Source of the DNA: Parcubacteria group bacterium LiPW_41
Lineage (GTDB): Bacteria > Patescibacteriota > Minisyncoccia > UBA6257 > GWB1-50-10
Reading direction: 5' to 3'
Assembly: GCA_007375535.1 (NCBI GenBank)
Contig: VMEM01000006.1
Location: 1-56,006, forward strand
Length of the DNA: 56,006 nucleotides
Made by a program: the position numbers and the translations under genes. This document shows, one piece after another, positions 4,382 through 16,413 of the stretch (position 1 is its first letter; each line of letters begins with the position of its first letter). The notes below the pieces were generated by a model, which worked only from the letters and a program-made list of their open reading frames with translations, had not been told where the DNA came from and made no database searches.

Positions 4382-4894
4382 CTATTTTTTTATTTGGATT
4401 TTTCGTGCGTTCTTCGTTCGATCAATAAACAAGTGTCCATCAAGATGGTCTACCTCGTGTTGGAATATTCGAGCAAGAAGTCCCCACGCTTTTAATTTTA
4501 TTTTCTTTCCTTTTATGTCTTGCCCCTCAAGAGTGACTCGATATGCACGGGGAGTTGGGCCATACATTTCTGGAACACTCAAACATCCTTCTTCAATTGT
4601 TGAAAGTTCTTCAGAAAATTTCGTAATCACCGGATTGAATATTGCATAAAATTTTTGCTTTCCTTGGCTATCCGGTGCCTCAGCAACAAAAAAACGCTCG
4701 TTTATACCAATCTGGTTTGCAGAAAGTCCAACGCCATTTGCGCGCTTCATTGTCTCTCGCATCACCTTAATCAACTCTTTTAACTCCTTTTCTGTATACT
4801 TATCAAAATTAAATGAGACGGTTTTCTTTCGAAGAAACGCTTCGTCTTTGCTTTCCGCTACTGTTACTATTGGTCTTACTTCTTTTTGATTCAT
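4382..4894 (-). CDS. def: Peptide deformylase
   Basis: GVGLSANQIG, EGCLS, HEVDH motifs; start taken at ATG 4894 (MNQKEV) rather than 4924. Confidence 0.95.
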   Translation of the reverse strand: MNQKEVRPIVTVAESKDEAFLRKKTVSFNFDKYTEKELKELIKVMRETMKRANGVGLSANQIGINERFFVAEAPDSQGKQKFYAIFNPVITKFSEELSTIEEGCLSVPEMYGPTPRAYRVTLEGQDIKGKKIKLKAWGLLARIFQHEVDHLDGHLFIDRTKNARKIQIKK

Positions 4895-11621: not shown

Positions 11622-12691
11622 TGAGCGCAATAGTACTAGTAATTTCAATATGCATTGTCTTGGTCATCGCGGTAGGCGTTGCCTTTGTTTTTATCATTCG
11701 ATTGTTAAAAAAACCACAACAAAAAGAAGACAACTCTTCGTTGTTGTTATTACAAAACCAAATCCAAGAACTTTCTCGGGCAATTGATTCACGACTTCAT
11801 GAATCTTCTCGGTTTATGCAAACACAATATGGCGAGTCACATAAAATTATTAAAGATGTAACTGATCGACTTGCAAAACTTGATGAAACAAACAGACAAG
11901 TAGTAGGGTTTGCCGACCAACTACAATCGCTTCAAGATATTTTAAAAAACCCAAAACAACGCGGAATTGTTGGAGAGTACTATCTTGAAACACTTCTGAA
12001 AAATGTTCTCCCTCCTGGAAGCTACGAGATGCAATATCATATGGGACGGGATGACGAAGGAAAAGAACTTATTGTTGATGCGGTAGTGTTTGTTAAAGAT
12101 AAAATTATTCCTATTGATTCAAAGTTTTCACTCGAAAACTATAATCGTCTTGTTGAAGAACGAGACGAGGTAGAACGCGCACGTCTTGAAAAAACATTTA
12201 TTGGAGATTTAAAAAAACGAATCGAAGAAACATCGAAATATATTAGACCAGAGCAAAATACAATGGAATTTGCATTTATGTTTATTCCACACGAGGCAAT
12301 TTATTATGATTTACTCATTAATAAAATTGGAGCATTAAAAGATGAAAATACTGAGAGCTTGATCCAGCGCGCAGCAGGGAAGTACAAGGTAATTATCGTT
12401 TCACCAACATCATTCCTTGCATACCTCCAGACAGTACTTCAAGGACTTAAAGCAATGCAAATTGAAGAATCTGCAAAAGAAATTCGAAAACGTGTTGAAG
12501 AACTTGGAAAACATATAGGTGCACACGATCAATTTATGCAGTCATTAGGGAAATCACTAGAGACAACAGTAAATCACTATAACAAGGCCTCGAAAGAGTT
12601 GGGGAAAATTGATAAGGATGTATTAAGAATTACCGGAACAAACACTGGGGTAGAACCTCTAACTCTCATAACACCAGAAAGAGATGAGTAG
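11621..12691 (+). CDS. rmuC: DNA recombination protein RmuC
   Basis: N-terminal TM + coiled coil, KQRG..GE..LE, D....IPIDSKF, FAFMFIP.E.IY, SPTSFLAYL. Confidence 0.92.
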   Translation: MSAIVLVISICIVLVIAVGVAFVFIIRLLKKPQQKEDNSSLLLLQNQIQELSRAIDSRLHESSRFMQTQYGESHKIIKDVTDRLAKLDETNRQVVGFADQLQSLQDILKNPKQRGIVGEYYLETLLKNVLPPGSYEMQYHMGRDDEGKELIVDAVVFVKDKIIPIDSKFSLENYNRLVEERDEVERARLEKTFIGDLKKRIEETSKYIRPEQNTMEFAFMFIPHEAIYYDLLINKIGALKDENTESLIQRAAGKYKVIIVSPTSFLAYLQTVLQGLKAMQIEESAKEIRKRVEELGKHIGAHDQFMQSLGKSLETTVNHYNKASKELGKIDKDVLRITGTNTGVEPLTLITPERDE

Positions 12692-13580
12692 TGATTTAAA
12701 ACAAAAGGTTCTTGAATTCATTTCGTTTTATGCAACGATGGGACGAGCAACTTCTTTAATGGAGATAAAAACTCGTGCGCCAATAAGTAATAAAATAACA
12801 ATCACAGACATATTGGATGTGTTAAGCGTCTTAAACAAAAAAGGTGACATAGCATTCAAAGATGGTTTTTATACAACAAGGGAACGCATAGCACTTTTAG
12901 AATCACGAACCACACAAGATTTTAATTTAGATAAAAAATGGGAACGTCTGCTTCGTGGCGCACAATGGTTTCACCACATTCCCTTCATTGATTTTGCCGC
13001 AGTAAGTGGGTCAATCTCATTCGGTGCAATTCGTTCGTCATCAGACTTTGATATTATTCTCGGAGTAAAGAAAGGAAGAATTTTTACTGCACGCTATTTT
13101 GCAAGCGCACTTTTTTCATTATTGCGAATTCGAAGACTTGATGATCTTGAAGCAAGTAGTCCAAATAAATTCTGCTTCAATCACATTGTTACACCAAGTA
13201 CTTATGAGAAAGAGCCACATAATTACTATAGATACGAATTATATAGACACATGATTCCTATTTTTATTAATGGGAATTCTTTCAATGATTTTATTGAAAT
13301 GAATAAATGGGCAAACATCTCACCTCTAAATATTGAACACGCGAAAGAAACACTAAGACATCCAAGTAAAATAAAAAAATATATTGAATCCATTCTCGAT
13401 GGACGAATTGGAAATTATATCGAACAGTATATTGCACGACCAATCGCAACAAAAAGACTTTCAAATTATATCAACCAAAAACAAACCAGGGGCAGGGTAG
13501 TAGTGAGCGATGAAGAACTTGAATTTCATTTTTCACTCAATTATGAGGAACAATTCTCTCATTTTTTAATTGAAAAATAG
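12684..13580 (+). CDS. Nucleotidyltransferase-fold protein
   Basis: GS...DxD motif (VSGSISFG...SSDFDII) after an N-terminal wHTH-like segment. Confidence 0.6.
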   Translation: MSSDLKQKVLEFISFYATMGRATSLMEIKTRAPISNKITITDILDVLSVLNKKGDIAFKDGFYTTRERIALLESRTTQDFNLDKKWERLLRGAQWFHHIPFIDFAAVSGSISFGAIRSSSDFDIILGVKKGRIFTARYFASALFSLLRIRRLDDLEASSPNKFCFNHIVTPSTYEKEPHNYYRYELYRHMIPIFINGNSFNDFIEMNKWANISPLNIEHAKETLRHPSKIKKYIESILDGRIGNYIEQYIARPIATKRLSNYINQKQTRGRVVVSDEELEFHFSLNYEEQFSHFLIEK

Positions 13581-13585
13581 GATGC

Positions 13586-13615
13586 AAAAAACCCACCCCG
13601 CTTGCGCGGGGTGGG
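13586..13615 (-). terminator. Intrinsic terminator with minus-strand polarity
   Basis: 10-bp stem CCCACCCCGC-TTGC-GCGGGGTGGG; U6 tract only on the - strand (A6 at 13586-91). Confidence 0.85.
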
Positions 13616-13671
13616 AAATGGAAGAATTTCCTTATGCCCTTGAGAGGCACTAGTAAATTCACTCACTCAAC
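13586..13671 (-). ncRNA. Candidate ~85-nt sRNA divergent from secA
   Basis: Lies between a consensus - strand promoter and a - polarity terminator; no ATG ORF; internal hairpin GAATTT..TGCCTC-TCAA-GGGCA..AAATTC. Confidence 0.6.
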
Positions 13672-13677
13672 ACTTGC

Positions 13678-13706
13678 ATTGTAGCATACATCTCTTAAAA
13701 ATGCAA
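13678..13706 (-). promoter_or_regulatory. Sigma70 promoter of the candidate sRNA
   Basis: TTGCAT -17 nt- TACAAT with TGC extension on the - strand. Confidence 0.7.
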
Positions 13707-13791
13707 GCCTTAATTATTGAGACTAGAACTATATTTTCCTCTATTTTTAAGATATTGCCTTGGGGAAACGATGTGGTACTATATACCCATA

Positions 13792-13895
13792 GCGGTATTG
13801 GGCGGCGCGGGCGACTACGGATTGCGCACTCGCTCAACAACATTGTTAAAATGGAGGTCACCACCGTAGTCGCCCTCGAATCCTAATACCGTTTT
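13792..13895 (+). promoter_or_regulatory. Structured 5' leader of secA (rod hairpin ending in a U-run)
   Basis: Stems 13792-802/13882-892 (G.U pairs favour the + strand) and perfect 12-bp 13809-20/13864-75; promoter TTGCCT..TACTAT at 13755-13782. Confidence 0.65.
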
Positions 13896-13908
13896 GTCTT
13901 ACACATTT

Positions 13909-16413
13909 ATGTCACTTTTTTCAAAACTATTTAAAACGGATGAAACAAAAGAGTTACGTGAACGCGTTGCTGAAATTTCTGCACTTGAGGCTGTTATTGA
14001 AAAACTTTCAGACGTTGAATTATTAGAATCAGCTCAAAAGCTAAGGGAAACAATTCAGTCATCTGATGATATTGAAAGAGCACTTGATTCAGCACTTCCT
14101 CGTGCATTTGCACTCACTCGCGAAGCAGCAAAACGAAAATTAAAACAACGACACTATGACGTTCAGCTCATCGGTGGAATTGTGCTTCATGAAGGAAAAA
14201 TTACCGAAATGTTAACAGGAGAAGGAAAAACACTCACTGCAACTTCAGCGGTATTTCTTAATGCACTCGGAGGTAAGGGAGTGCACGTGGTTACCGTGAA
14301 TGACTACCTCGCTCAACGTGATGCAATTTGGATGGGACAAATCTACCATGCACTTGGACTTTCAACTTCTTGTATAGTCCATGATAACGCATTTATGTAT
14401 GATCCATCATATGAAGGAACTGAAGCAGATAAAGAACGTGATGAACTGGGAAGTTTCCGCGTTGTTGAAAAATTTTTGCGTCCAATTTCTCGACGAGAAG
14501 CATATGAAGCAGATATTACCTATGGAACAAACCACGAATTCGGATTTGATTATTTGCGCGACAACCTTGTCTCCACGCTTTCAGAAAGAGTTCAACGTGA
14601 ATACAACTTCGCCATTATTGATGAGGTTGATTCGATTTTAATTGATGAAGCGCGAAACCCTCTCATTATTGCGGGGTCTGATAGTGAATCAAGTGGATAC
14701 TATAAAACATTTGCACGCATTGCAGAACGGTTAGTACCCGAAGAAGATTATTTAATTGATGAAAAACTGAAAACTGTTTCAATTTTGGAATCAGGAATTG
14801 AAAAAGTTGAACGTGAAATGGGTATTGAAAATATGTATACCCCAGAAAATGCACGGCTTGTTCATTTTCTTCAAGAGAGTGTTCGCGCTCGCGCATTATT
14901 TCATAAAGACAAAGAGTACGTTGTTCGTAACGGAGAAATTTGTATAGTTGATGAATTTACCGGACGAATGATGCAAGGACGAAGATATTCTGGGGGACTT
15001 CATCAAGCAATTGAAGCAAAAGAAGGAGTTCTTGTGAAAGAAGAAAATCGAACCTACGCACAAATCACACTTCAGAATTATTTCAGACTTTATAAGAAAA
15101 TTGCAGGAATGACTGGTACTGCACAAACTTCTGCAGAAGAATTTCATAAGACATACAAACTTGGAGTTATTTCTGTTCCACCAAATAAACCTACTATTCG
15201 CATTAATTATGATGATGTCATCTACAAGACAAAAGATGCGAAATATCGAGCAATAGCAAAGGAAGTCCGCGTACGACACGAGAAAGGACAACCAGTTCTT
15301 ATTGGTACAACATCTATTTCTAACAACGAAGATATTTCTCGATATCTTATGGAGGAGGGAATCACTCATGAGGTTTTGAATGCAAAAAACAATGAACGAG
15401 AAGGAGCAATCATCGCTCAAGCAGGAAAACTTGGAGCAGTAACTGTTGCAACCAATATGGCAGGACGTGGAGTTGATATTATTCTTGGGGGTATTCCATT
15501 TAATAAAGAGCTTGCAGAAAAAGTAAAAGAACTTGGTGGACTTCATGTAATTGGAACCGAGAGACACGAAGCACGCCGAATTGATAATCAGCTTCGTGGG
15601 CGCGCAGGGCGACAAGGAGATCCGGGATCGTCACAATTCTTCCTTTCTGTTGAGGACGACTTGATGCGCATATTCGGAGGCGATCGAATTGGGTCAGTAA
15701 TGCAAATGATGAATCTTCCTGATGATGTTCCGATTGAATCAAAGATTATTTCAAAAGCGGTAAACCAGGCTCAACAAAAAGTTGAAGGAAATAATTTTGA
15801 CCTCAGAAAACATCTTCTTGAATTCGATGATGTATTAAACAAACAACGTGGCGCCCTCTACGGACGCAGAACAAACATATTGAAAGCAGGGGAGAATAAT
15901 ACCATTCTTCCAATGGTTTGTGACCTTCTCGATTCATTTTTACACAATTATGAATCTGCAATTAAACACAGTACAGAGAATCTCGACGAAGAAGATATCA
16001 AAAAGCTCGAGGAAGCAAAAACACTTCGATCAAAAGTTCCCGAAACAATTGAAAATGAGCGAGCACTCATCATCGCACAACAACTCGTAAGGATTCTTGA
16101 TACATTGTGGATTGAACACTTGGAACATTTGGAATCTCTTCGCGATACAGTAAACTTGCGAGCATATGGCCAACATGAACCAATCGTTGAGTATCGCCGT
16201 GAGGCACACATCCTCTTTGAACGACTACTCCGTGCATTTGAACAAATAATATTTAATTCAATATTTCCAATATTTGAAATGGATATATCAAATATAAATT
16301 TCAACAAGCCAGCACGAAAAGTTATTCCTCCAACTGATGCAAAAGACATTGGAAGAAATGATCCTTGTTACTGCGGATCAGGAAAAAAGTACAAGAAGTG
16401 CCACGGTGCGTAG
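13909..16413 (+). CDS. secA: Preprotein translocase ATPase SecA
   Basis: TGEGKT, DEVDSILID, ATNMAGRG, QLRGRAGRQGD, C-terminal SEC-C GRNDPCYCGSGKKYKKCH. Confidence 0.98.
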   Translation: MSLFSKLFKTDETKELRERVAEISALEAVIEKLSDVELLESAQKLRETIQSSDDIERALDSALPRAFALTREAAKRKLKQRHYDVQLIGGIVLHEGKITEMLTGEGKTLTATSAVFLNALGGKGVHVVTVNDYLAQRDAIWMGQIYHALGLSTSCIVHDNAFMYDPSYEGTEADKERDELGSFRVVEKFLRPISRREAYEADITYGTNHEFGFDYLRDNLVSTLSERVQREYNFAIIDEVDSILIDEARNPLIIAGSDSESSGYYKTFARIAERLVPEEDYLIDEKLKTVSILESGIEKVEREMGIENMYTPENARLVHFLQESVRARALFHKDKEYVVRNGEICIVDEFTGRMMQGRRYSGGLHQAIEAKEGVLVKEENRTYAQITLQNYFRLYKKIAGMTGTAQTSAEEFHKTYKLGVISVPPNKPTIRINYDDVIYKTKDAKYRAIAKEVRVRHEKGQPVLIGTTSISNNEDISRYLMEEGITHEVLNAKNNEREGAIIAQAGKLGAVTVATNMAGRGVDIILGGIPFNKELAEKVKELGGLHVIGTERHEARRIDNQLRGRAGRQGDPGSSQFFLSVEDDLMRIFGGDRIGSVMQMMNLPDDVPIESKIISKAVNQAQQKVEGNNFDLRKHLLEFDDVLNKQRGALYGRRTNILKAGENNTILPMVCDLLDSFLHNYESAIKHSTENLDEEDIKKLEEAKTLRSKVPETIENERALIIAQQLVRILDTLWIEHLEHLESLRDTVNLRAYGQHEPIVEYRREAHILFERLLRAFEQIIFNSIFPIFEMDISNINFNKPARKVIPPTDAKDIGRNDPCYCGSGKKYKKCHGA

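Follow-up and report, generated by a model that had tools for sequence, protein, structure and literature searches.

A predicted small RNA and a conserved hairpin upstream of secA covary at their pairing sites in a Parcubacteria-type bacterium and its relatives

The 328-nt spacer upstream of secA in Parcubacteria group bacterium LiPW_41 lies within a 56,006-nt stretch of contig VMEM01000006.1 (GCA_007375535.1), hereafter referred to as the window. The spacer follows a gene at 12684-13580 and contains a predicted small RNA (sRNA) gene on the - strand and a long hairpin on the + strand. The hairpin (13788-13896) ends 13 nt before the secA ATG. The features of the locus, with positions numbered from the first nucleotide of the window, are as follows.

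13701-13706 (-): -35-like hexamer TTGCAT of the predicted sRNA promoter, weak (3 of 6 positions matching TTGACA)
13678-13686 (-): extended -10 TGCTACAAT of the sRNA promoter, with TACAAT at 13683-13678 preceded by TG at 13686-13685
13586-13671 (-): predicted sRNA, ~86 nt, with its 5' end predicted near G13671 and its 3' end in the U6 tract
13660-13671 (-): sRNA 5' seed GUUGAGUGAGUG, the sRNA side of helix 1
13625-13659 (-): central hairpin of the sRNA, short in this clade and longer in others (UUUCCUU...AAGGAAA arms)
13616-13624 (-): CUUCCAUUU, the sRNA side of helix 2, just 5' of the terminator
13586-13615 (-): predicted intrinsic terminator of the sRNA (10-bp stem, GCAA loop, U6)
13755-13782 (+): predicted promoter of the hairpin/secA transcript (TTGCCT, 16 nt, TGgTACTAT)
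13788-13898 (+): conserved long hairpin RNA, with arms 13788-13820 and 13864-13896 around a 43-nt apical loop; here it is the secA 5' leader
13827-13838 (+): loop site 1, CACUCGCUCAAC, the leader side of helix 1
13849-13857 (+): loop site 2, AAAUGGAGG, the leader side of helix 2
13853-13862 (+): GGAGGUCACC, invariant in every locus found through SecA alone
13892-13900 (+): U-rich tract UUUUGUCUU directly after the hairpin, a possible terminator tail
13909-16413 (+): secA, whose ATG has no Shine-Dalgarno (SD) sequence

A preliminary description of this sequence had proposed that a - strand promoter and terminator define an ~85-nt RNA without an ATG ORF, that the first 12 nt of this RNA are complementary to the apical region of the secA leader, and that the two DNA sites form a 13-nt direct repeat with one mismatch. 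We find each of these sequence features to be present as described. The only terminator-like site in the region is on the - strand, CCCACCCCGC-GCAA-GCGGGGTGGG (13615-13592) followed by U6 (13591-13586), whereas on the + strand the same stem is followed by AAAUGG. The -35 hexamer is separated from the -10 box by 17 nt and, matching TTGACA at only 3 of 6 positions, was not listed by a consensus scan; the promoter rests on the extended -10. The 86 nt contain no ATG, and two GTG ORFs (35 and 41 aa) run through the terminator and have their frames broken by indels in relatives. The repeat consists of CACTCACTCAACA (13660-13672) and CACTCGCTCAACA (13827-13839). The 12-mer occurs only at these two places in the 56 kb, against 0.30 expected, and 4 of 100 shuffles give two or more occurrences, although this test is circular on its own; the real significance comes from the comparative data below. 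The sRNA folds at -40.6 kcal/mol (z = -5.8) and the hairpin at -51.8 kcal/mol (z = -5.4). The identity of secA is supported by Pfam (SecA_DEAD, 3.4e-113, and further SecA domains), and only 13 of 57 genes in the window have any SD-like motif.

Both elements are found upstream of secA in a graded series of SecA relatives (96% to 63% identity), and a scan of metagenomes added about 30 more non-redundant loci, giving about 40 in total from related Paceibacteria (individual loci are designated L followed by a number). Among 80 GTDB secA loci retrieved with SecA 43-63% identical to that of the window, only L001 carries the hairpin. The hairpin is single-copy in the window (one covariance-model hit, 93 bits) and always occupies the same syntenic position in relatives, unlike the many dispersed copies expected of a repetitive palindromic element (REP/MITE). 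Because the metagenome loci were selected on the loop motifs, which inflates apparent loop invariance, only L001 and L081-L089 count as independent evidence for the invariance of GGAGGUCACC.

The hairpin stem shows extensive covariation, with 93% of cells paired and double changes at 18 of 18 variable stem pairs (246 cells against 79 +/- 8 in shuffles). The covariation score is 0.68 against 0.18, with 0 of 500 shuffles as high and slid controls at or below 0.18. G.U pairs occur in the stem, so selection acts on the + strand RNA. A -10 box lies 8-10 nt before the hairpin in relatives despite sequence change.

The sRNA gene is likewise conserved as an independent unit, with homologous genes in 37 of 43 non-redundant loci; L128, L139/L157 and L144 show no sRNA in the available flanks. 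TTGCAT, TTGCAA or TTGCTT is kept 17 nt from the -10, and TGCTA[C/T]AAT-like boxes sit 3-7 nt before the seed in most of 30 listed loci, whichever strand the gene is on, although a few diverge (for example, TACACT and TAGAGT). The terminator stem shows compensatory changes in relatives (CCCACCTCGC/GCGAGGTGGG; CCCACACGTTTC/GAAACGTGTGGG). The gene is divergent in the window clade, co-oriented upstream in most clades, and convergent downstream in L124 and L138, and its promoter and terminator move with it, yet it stays complementary to its own neighbour. No conserved ORF was found in the sRNA. Alignment of the whole sRNA family with MAFFT and RNAalifold was too gapped to recover the central hairpin.

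Complementarity between the sRNA and the hairpin loop is maintained by compensatory evolution at two sites. That seed and target should be conserved and covary in relatives had been set in advance as a condition the proposal could fail, and it is fulfilled. In helix 1, the seed and loop site 1 form a 12-bp duplex of -21.3 kcal/mol in the window, and duplexes of -13.5 to -23 kcal/mol form in every locus. Three intermolecular pairs carry changes on both sides (overall G.U, U-A, G-C and A-U): pair 8/34 takes UA, AU, CG and UG, pair 6/36 takes AU and UA, and pair 9/33 takes GC and AU, amounting to 10 double-change cells against 2.4 +/- 1.3, with 0 of 500 shuffles as high. The cognate mean is -17.7 against a permuted mean of -14.6, with 0 of 20,000 permutations as low (tests that do not model phylogeny explicitly). 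Helix 2, which the preliminary description missed, pairs sRNA CUUCCAUUU with leader AAAUGGAGG over 9 bp with one G.U and covers part of the invariant GGAGGUCACC, including GGAGG. Its cognate mean is -9.4 against -7.9 within 14 lineages, again with 0 of 20,000 permutations as low, and examples include AAAUGGAGG/CUUCCAUUU in the window, AAUAGGAGG/UUUCCUAUU in L088, and CACAAAUUG/CAAUUUGUG in L098 against CACAAUUUG/CAAAUUGUG in L097. A blind anchor-based alignment for helix 2 picked terminator CCUCC stretches in several loci and was abandoned in favour of the permutation test.

Thermodynamic co-folding was less informative. RNAcofold of the sRNA with the leader or the isolated loop uses a nested model that can place neither intermolecular pairs inside a closed loop nor both helices at once, and it returned a spurious 6-bp pairing to secA codons 2-3 (13912-13917) that is not conserved in L085 or L087. 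A second 10-nt copy of the target inside secA (14309-14318) is not conserved in L081 and is attributed to chance. Folding of wider windows suggested outer pairs reaching the ATG in some loci, but these involve bases upstream of the predicted start and AT-rich sequence and were not trusted.

Neither RNA matches an Rfam 15 family. At gathering thresholds the window contains two tRNAs only, the region 13400-14100 searched at E values up to 10 gave only spurious miRNA/snoRNA-type hits far below threshold, and L001 and 14 further loci gave nothing; the raiA motif (RF03072) was not hit in the permissive search or in these other loci. SRP RNA, 6S, tmRNA, T-box and hammerhead identities were rejected as there were no model hits and no consensus motifs by eye. 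No conserved ORF exists between 13581 and 13908, which argues against a SecM-type arrest peptide; the preliminary description was correct that secM is absent, but this absence is uninformative.

The genomic context of the hairpin varies across clades, and it is not strictly a secA leader as had been proposed. In the window secA follows directly and hpf is not adjacent, whereas hpf is next in the L097, L121 and L168 clades and murB-hpf-secA follows in L098, L127 and L142. In most loci the hairpin ends 4-15 nt before the ATG of secA or murB, leaving no room for another promoter, so it is unavoidably part of that mRNA. In L124, L128, L138 and L139, however, it diverges from the murB-hpf-secA operon and is not followed by any gene it could lead; L124, L138 and L139 show a terminator hairpin after it and L128 a U-run, so there it cannot act in cis on secA. 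Some clades carry a nested double version with an extra domain of roughly 200-300 nt, and a Pol-beta-type nucleotidyltransferase gene precedes the hairpin in many clades. The U-rich tract after the hairpin is UUUUGUCUU in the window and U7-U8 in L085/L086, but tails are only moderately U-rich overall (mean 5 of 12 in an AT-rich genome) and the 43-nt loop is atypical of a terminator.

Unstranded metatranscriptome contigs from an L085-like relative join the hairpin to secA coding sequence, running through the U-rich tract. One such contig covers the sRNA region but extends past both predicted ends to include its promoter and the 3' end of the upstream gene, and it may therefore come from + strand read-through or from DNA. 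A search of RNA runs with L138 returned a single uninformative run.

These observations suggest that the spacer holds two RNA genes that work as a pair. In this view, a + strand transcript starts near 13789 from an extended -10 promoter, folds at once into a ~30-bp hairpin and continues into secA, while the divergent sRNA pairs with both halves of the apical loop, although not necessarily simultaneously. In the free leader, GC.CUC of site 1 is predicted to pair with GAG.GU of GGAGGUCACC, a small helix that never varies and so lacks comparative support; the open CUCAAC would then serve as a toehold, and sRNA binding would open this helix and cover GGAGG. We regard the existence and conservation of both genes, RNA-level selection on the hairpin stem and covariation of both intermolecular helices as established by comparison, whereas transcription of the sRNA with the predicted ends, and any change in the output of the hairpin-led transcript (secA here; murB-hpf-secA or hpf-secA elsewhere), are inferred. 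Our preferred mechanism is that the sRNA, by clamping the loop, blocks whatever reads the exposed GGAGGUCACC/A-rich loop, whether 30S standby binding or a protein; it may also alter termination or RNase III processing at the long hairpin and U-tract, and the net sign is most likely repression. Reading GGAGG as a ribosome-binding signal is uncertain, as most genes here lack an SD, many look leaderless, and GGAGG lies inside the loop about 50 nt from the ATG, too far to act as its SD. Pairing of the two RNAs is highly likely, regulation of secA expression by that pairing is about as likely as not, and our confidence in the explanation as a whole is moderate. The earlier interpretation, a trans-acting antisense RNA tuning SecA, is thus only partly supported: an independent sRNA gene whose 5' end pairs with the loop is borne out, but the tuning of SecA remains inference.

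A possible though less likely alternative is that the hairpin RNA is itself a trans-acting ncRNA, terminated at its own U-tract or terminator, with the sRNA as its dedicated partner, either an antagonist/sponge or one half of a two-RNA complex. The position before (murB-)hpf-secA would then be inherited synteny, secA would be expressed by read-through, and the pair would do something other than tune secA. The divergent hairpins of L124, L128, L138 and L139 favour this view, as they are still under selection with compensatory stem changes among them, as do the U-rich tracts in the window and L085/L086, the invariance of GGAGGUCACC beyond what helix 2 needs, the nested double versions, which are typical of structured ncRNAs, and the analogous position of the raiA motif RNA of Bacillota, which acts in trans (PMC10861870). 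Against it stand the close spacing to the ATG in most loci, the RNA contigs joining hairpin and secA, the lack of any other known target or partner, and the absence of further copies of the 12-mer target from the 56 kb. More speculatively, and doubtful on present evidence, the two RNAs may form an obligate, co-inherited complex, a junction built from the hairpin stem, two intermolecular helices and the sRNA's own hairpin that displays GGAGGUCACC. Its function would lie beyond cis control of secA, for example as a ribosome- or secretion-linked ribonucleoprotein or a CPR counterpart by position of the still-unexplained raiA RNA, and it may be connected to the nucleotidyltransferase gene.

The remaining alternatives are very unlikely. 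The preliminary description had named two copies of a protein operator as the rival reading, and the sites are indeed direct repeats 167 bp apart flanking two promoters, one of them overlapping the predicted +1 of the - strand promoter. In most clades, however, the sRNA gene is co-oriented with the hairpin, so the two DNA sites are inverted and lie at varying distances (from -136 to -2180 and at +155), their differences follow RNA pairing rules (G.U pairs, 1-nt bulges) rather than sequence identity, a second, unrelated pair of sites also covaries, and the hairpin site lies inside a transcribed, structure-constrained loop. A type I toxin-antitoxin-like pair, in which the hairpin transcript would encode a small peptide (ATG at 13852, MEVTTVVALES, 13852-13887) translated from a GGAGG-proximal start in the loop and repressed by the sRNA, is suggested by a layout resembling tisB/IstR-1, zor/orz and shoB/ohsC and by an ATG 7-8 nt after GGAGG in about 40% of loci. 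Yet the window ORF starts upstream of GGAGG, has no SD of its own and is not conserved: L088 has TAG in place of the start codon, the codon after GGAGG is GTA, ATA, GCA, AAC, ACC and others in most clades, and the peptides would be 9-11 aa, variable and encoded by the covarying stem arm. Chance similarity plus an ordinary bidirectional terminator of the upstream gene might account for a terminator 6 nt after that gene's stop codon, RNA contigs crossing it from the upstream gene and a weak -35, but it is contradicted by the U-tract being on the - strand only and by conservation of promoter, seed, body and terminator as a unit that moves to other strands and to contexts with different upstream genes (map in L088, rny in L098).

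Literature searches for a described sRNA or secA-linked RNA motif in the Candidate Phyla Radiation (CPR)/Patescibacteria found neither a published base-pairing sRNA nor such a motif, and the covariation of the two RNAs points to a previously undescribed RNA-RNA control module in this group. This is therefore an sRNA-target pair in these reduced, uncultivated bacteria with strong covariation support at both intramolecular and intermolecular levels, and its mechanism is still open. The pair is tied to secA, and in sister clades to murB-hpf-secA, core functions whose regulation outside model bacteria is poorly understood. Both RNAs are short and the predicted contacts are explicit, which makes the hypothesis directly testable without cultivating the organism. 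The invariant GGAGGUCACC and the lineages in which the hairpin stands alone suggest that there may be more to find than simple antisense control.

Several characterized systems share aspects of this arrangement. The adjacent trans-acting sRNAs of Escherichia coli (IstR-1/tisB, and the zor-orz and shoB-ohsC type) lie next to their targets without overlapping them, are often divergent, and pair through a short 5' region far upstream of the start codon in a structured 5' UTR; IstR-1 works by occluding a ribosome standby site, the mechanism favoured here. In the present case there is no conserved toxin ORF, the downstream gene is the essential secA or murB-hpf-secA, pairing is bipartite and inside a hairpin loop, and the organism is a CPR bacterium. 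The raiA motif RNA (RF03072; PMC10861870), a structured ncRNA of unknown function, typically sits upstream of raiA/hpf and near secA and prfB; the hairpin sits upstream of hpf-secA or murB-hpf-secA in several clades but not in the window, and it has no covariance-model match to the raiA motif even at permissive E values, is much smaller (~105 nt), has a dedicated base-pairing partner and is found in Patescibacteria rather than Bacillota or Actinomycetota. In countertranscript-driven attenuation of plasmids pT181, pIP501 and pAMbeta1, a small RNA also binds the loop of a nascent leader upstream of an essential gene, and the leader ends in a hairpin followed by a U-tract, but those RNAs are cis-antisense, fully complementary and act by switching between antiterminator and terminator folds, whereas here the sRNA is encoded separately with 12 + 9 bp of pairing and no alternative leader fold was found.

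In the OxyS-fhlA two-site loop-loop (kissing) interaction, one sRNA similarly uses two separate regions to contact two sites of a single target RNA, one of which covers an SD-like sequence. Here both sites lie in one apical loop, the sRNA uses single-stranded 5' and 3' regions flanking its own hairpin, and the regulator and target genes are linked and co-inherited. Finally, the C/U-rich-region sRNAs of Gram-positives (RsaE/RoxS) pair with SD sequences, in line with the predicted pairing of a pyrimidine-rich single-stranded stretch (CUUCC) with a GGAGG element in this locus, although the GGAGG here is not the SD of any start codon and target specificity comes mainly from a second, longer 5' seed.

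The spacer between the upstream gene (12684-13580, + strand) and secA (13909-16413, + strand; all SecA Pfam domains present) is 328 nt long, which is long for a compact genome. The features read from the sequence of this spacer are as follows.

13706-13701, - strand: -35 hexamer TTGCAT of the predicted sRNA promoter, followed by a 17-nt spacer
13686-13678, - strand: extended -10, TGCTACAAT
13615-13592, - strand: 10-bp GC stem followed by U6, about 85 nt downstream and the only terminator-like site of the region
13755-13782, + strand: promoter elements TTGCCT, 16 nt, then TGgTACTAT
13788-13820 and 13864-13896, + strand: arms of a long hairpin with a 43-nt apical loop, ending in UUUUGUCUU, 13 nt before the secA ATG
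13660-13672 and 13827-13839: 13-nt direct repeat

The - strand promoter was not listed by a consensus scan because its -35 matches at only 3 of 6 positions, and it is bracketed by the inverted repeat CTTGCAT...ATGCAAG (13674-13707), with the -35 forming one arm. The predicted 86-nt RNA folds well (-40.6 kcal/mol, z = -5.8) and has no ATG, while the + strand hairpin folds at -51.8 kcal/mol (z = -5.4). The direct repeat noted in the preliminary description is real, and its 12-mer occurs only at these two places in 56 kb. Two further short matches to the sRNA seed lie inside secA, CTCGCTCAAC in the coding region (14309-14318) and UCACUU at codons 2-3 (13912-13917), but neither is conserved in close relatives and both are probably due to chance.

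A search of the GTDB species-representative genomes gave only one close locus, here termed L001 (SecA 63% identical), which carries a recognizably homologous hairpin upstream of secA with two compensatory stem changes. A protein search then yielded a graded series of SecA relatives at 96, 93, 88, 84, 82, 82, 70 and 70% identity, whose contigs all carry both the hairpin and the small RNA gene in front of secA. Source names on the SecA homologues place the lineage among Paceibacteria/Parcubacteria, with Jorgensenbacteria and Brennerbacteria as neighbours. A metagenome scan with the loop motif added about 30 more non-redundant loci, mixed with GC-rich coding false positives. As these metagenome loci were selected on GCACUNNCNCAAC...GGAGGUCACC, only L001 and the loci L081-L089, found through SecA alone, can speak to the invariance of those motifs, and all of them have the motifs intact.

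Comparative analysis indicates that the hairpin is an RNA under selection. On a covariance-model alignment of 39 instances, 93% of cells are paired and all 18 variable stem pairs show changes on both sides, amounting to 246 cells against 79 +/- 8 in shuffles. The covariation score is 0.68 against 0.18, with 0 of 500 shuffles as high, and slid controls stay at or below 0.18. G.U pairs occur in the stem, so selection acts on the + strand RNA rather than on a DNA cruciform. The element is single-copy in the window, and among the 80 secA loci fetched from the GTDB species representatives (SecA 43-63% identical to that of the window) only L001 carries it; it therefore belongs to one clade and is not a dispersed repeat. 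No Rfam family matches it. In L001 (~700-1110) and the metagenome locus L127 (~660-1130) (motif-oriented), and also in L134, L150, L158 and L171, the hairpin occurs in a nested double version, in which an outer hairpin with its own GGAGGUCACC encloses in its loop a complete inner hairpin plus an extra structured domain of roughly 200-300 nt, making the element a much larger RNA in these clades. A different CPR lineage, L018 (~600-740), has an apparently unrelated long hairpin upstream of secA whose apical part contains ACTCGCTCA; the covariance model does not hit it.

A gene homologous to that of the predicted sRNA was found in 37 of 43 non-redundant loci. It comprises a TGCTAYAAT-type -10, a 5' seed, a central hairpin with UUUCCUU...AAGGAAA arms, a pyrimidine-rich single strand and a GC terminator with a U-run, and the terminator stems differ between lineages by compensatory changes. 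The placement of the gene relative to the hairpin varies, being divergent in the window clade, co-oriented and upstream in most others (including L088 and L089, at 70% SecA identity), 2.2 kb away in L168, and convergent and downstream in L124 and L138, where it shares a bidirectional terminator. This mobility as a unit rules out a mere terminator of the upstream gene, and it also rules out a pair of protein operators, the alternative raised in the preliminary description. In the clade of L098 (~4745-4760), L124 (~665-680) and L138 (~4420-4435; motif-oriented), a DnaA-box-like TGTGGATAA / TTATCCACA sits beside the palindromic -35 region of the sRNA promoter, with an RNase Y-like gene beyond it. 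Insertions also occur within the module. L089 (~265-430) has a ~170-nt segment flanked by a 24-bp inverted repeat between the hairpin and the secA ATG, and L087 (~2200-2880) has a ~570-nt insertion between the sRNA gene and the hairpin, with pairing potential kept in both.

The 298-aa gene just upstream in the window (12684-13580, + strand) has a G-S...D-x-D motif and a weak Pfam Pol-beta nucleotidyltransferase hit (E = 0.053, below threshold). Its homologues lie directly upstream of the sRNA/hairpin in many clades (L110, L113, L114, L117, L123, L134, L150, L158 and L162), so the synteny NTase - sRNA - hairpin - secA is conserved, although a functional link to the RNAs is speculative.

The comparative data support pairing of the two RNAs at two sites. 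Helix 1, which joins the sRNA 5' end to the 5' half of the loop, can be formed in every locus at -13.5 to -23 kcal/mol, and it covaries: the central pair is G.U in the window clade, U-A in L088 and L096, G-C in L089 and L116, and A-U elsewhere. The CUCAAC/CACAAC polymorphism of the loop is matched by GUUGAG/GUUGUG in the sRNA, and the loop C-to-U change in L121 is matched by G-to-A. Formally, 3 pairs and 10 cells have double changes, against 2.4 +/- 1.3 cells in shuffles, and the covariation score is 0.157 against 0.065, with 0 of 500 shuffles as high for both cell count and covariation score.

Helix 2 was absent from the preliminary description. Here, the sRNA stretch just 5' of its terminator (CUUCCAUUU in the window, 13624-13616) pairs with the 3' half of the loop (AAAUGGAGG, 13849-13857), and the dinucleotide before GGAGG (AU, UA, UU or AA) is mirrored in the sRNA. 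In the L097/L098 clade the helix shifts to CACAAAUUG/CAAUUUGUG, while L097 has CACAAUUUG/CAAAUUGUG, a double compensatory change. In permutation tests applying the same duplex search to cognate and non-cognate pairs, cognate pairs won for both helices, within 14 independent lineages as well as in the full set of 19, with 0 of 20,000 permutations as low; the five-lineage L098 group alone is too small to be significant. Helix 2 is less uniform than helix 1 (6-12 bp), and we regard it as supported but less firmly.

Because the sRNA 5' end pairs with the 5' site and its 3' region with the 3' site, the complex would be a junction of four helices, namely the hairpin stem, helix 1, the sRNA's own hairpin and helix 2, with the A-rich linker of the loop bridging the far ends, provided that both intermolecular helices form at the same time. 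Nested-structure programs cannot represent this arrangement. In the free leader, RNAalifold pairs GC.CUC (within site 1, the loop side of helix 1) with GAG.GU (within GGAGGU), but these positions never vary, so this helix rests on prediction alone. If it is real, the open CUCAAC would act as a toehold for the sRNA 5' end, and binding would exchange this helix for helices 1 and 2.

In most loci the invariant GGAGGUCACC ends 33-60 nt before the secA ATG, and the base of the hairpin is then 4-15 nt from the ATG, leaving no room for another promoter. Metatranscriptome contigs from an L085-like relative run from inside the hairpin into secA, and nothing covers the promoter gap at 13697-13809. So in the window the hairpin is the secA 5' leader. 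This arrangement is not universal. In other clades the hairpin precedes murB-hpf-secA or hpf-secA, whereas in L124, L128, L138 and L139 it diverges from murB and is followed by a terminator hairpin (L124, L138 and L139) or a U-run (L128). No sRNA was seen in the available flanks of L128, L139/L157 and L144. The hairpin always abuts the 5' end of murB(-hpf-secA) but can face either way in closely related lineages (L098, L105, L127, L142, L122 and L103 versus L124, L128, L138 and L139; MurB 60-78% identical), as if inverted between its own long arms. In the divergent lineages it must act in trans, if it acts at all.

The expression data are weak, consisting only of unstranded assembled contigs. 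One contig from a relative covers the sRNA body but also the sRNA promoter and 208 nt of the upstream gene, and one contig identical to the window crosses the terminator from the upstream gene. Either could come from + strand read-through or from DNA, and neither allows a conclusion on the - strand RNA.

The sequence observation of the preliminary description held, whereas its proposal of an antisense RNA tuning SecA is supported only in part, in that the pairing is shown comparatively while any consequence for secA expression is inferred. The sRNA would cover most of the apical loop, including GGAGG, and the remaining UCACC is equally invariant, which suggests that something else reads this element. 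GGAGG cannot be the secA SD, as it lies about 50 nt from the ATG. The genome hardly uses SD sequences at all, with any SD-like motif in only 13 of the 57 genes (long ORFs) of the window, and many genes have a TATAAT-like box 7-12 nt before the ATG, which suggests widespread leaderless or very short-leader mRNAs. The 120-nt structured secA leader is exceptional in this genome. We favour occlusion of a loop-borne binding site, for a 30S standby or a protein, as IstR-1 does on tisB, with a possible second effect on termination or RNase III processing at the ~30-bp stem and U-tract. The main rival is that the hairpin RNA is a trans-acting ncRNA and the sRNA its dedicated partner, with secA expressed by read-through.

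By mode of action, the closest systems are adjacent trans-acting sRNAs such as IstR-1/tisB, the two-site OxyS-fhlA contact and plasmid countertranscript attenuation. By genomic position, the closest is the raiA motif RNA, which lies upstream of raiA/hpf and near secA (PMC10861870), although the raiA covariance model does not match here. The module is therefore best described as a predicted base-pairing sRNA with a linked target, a kind of arrangement already known, which, as far as the literature searched shows, is new for this phylum and new for secA, and unusual in its bipartite loop clamp and in the co-inheritance of the two genes.
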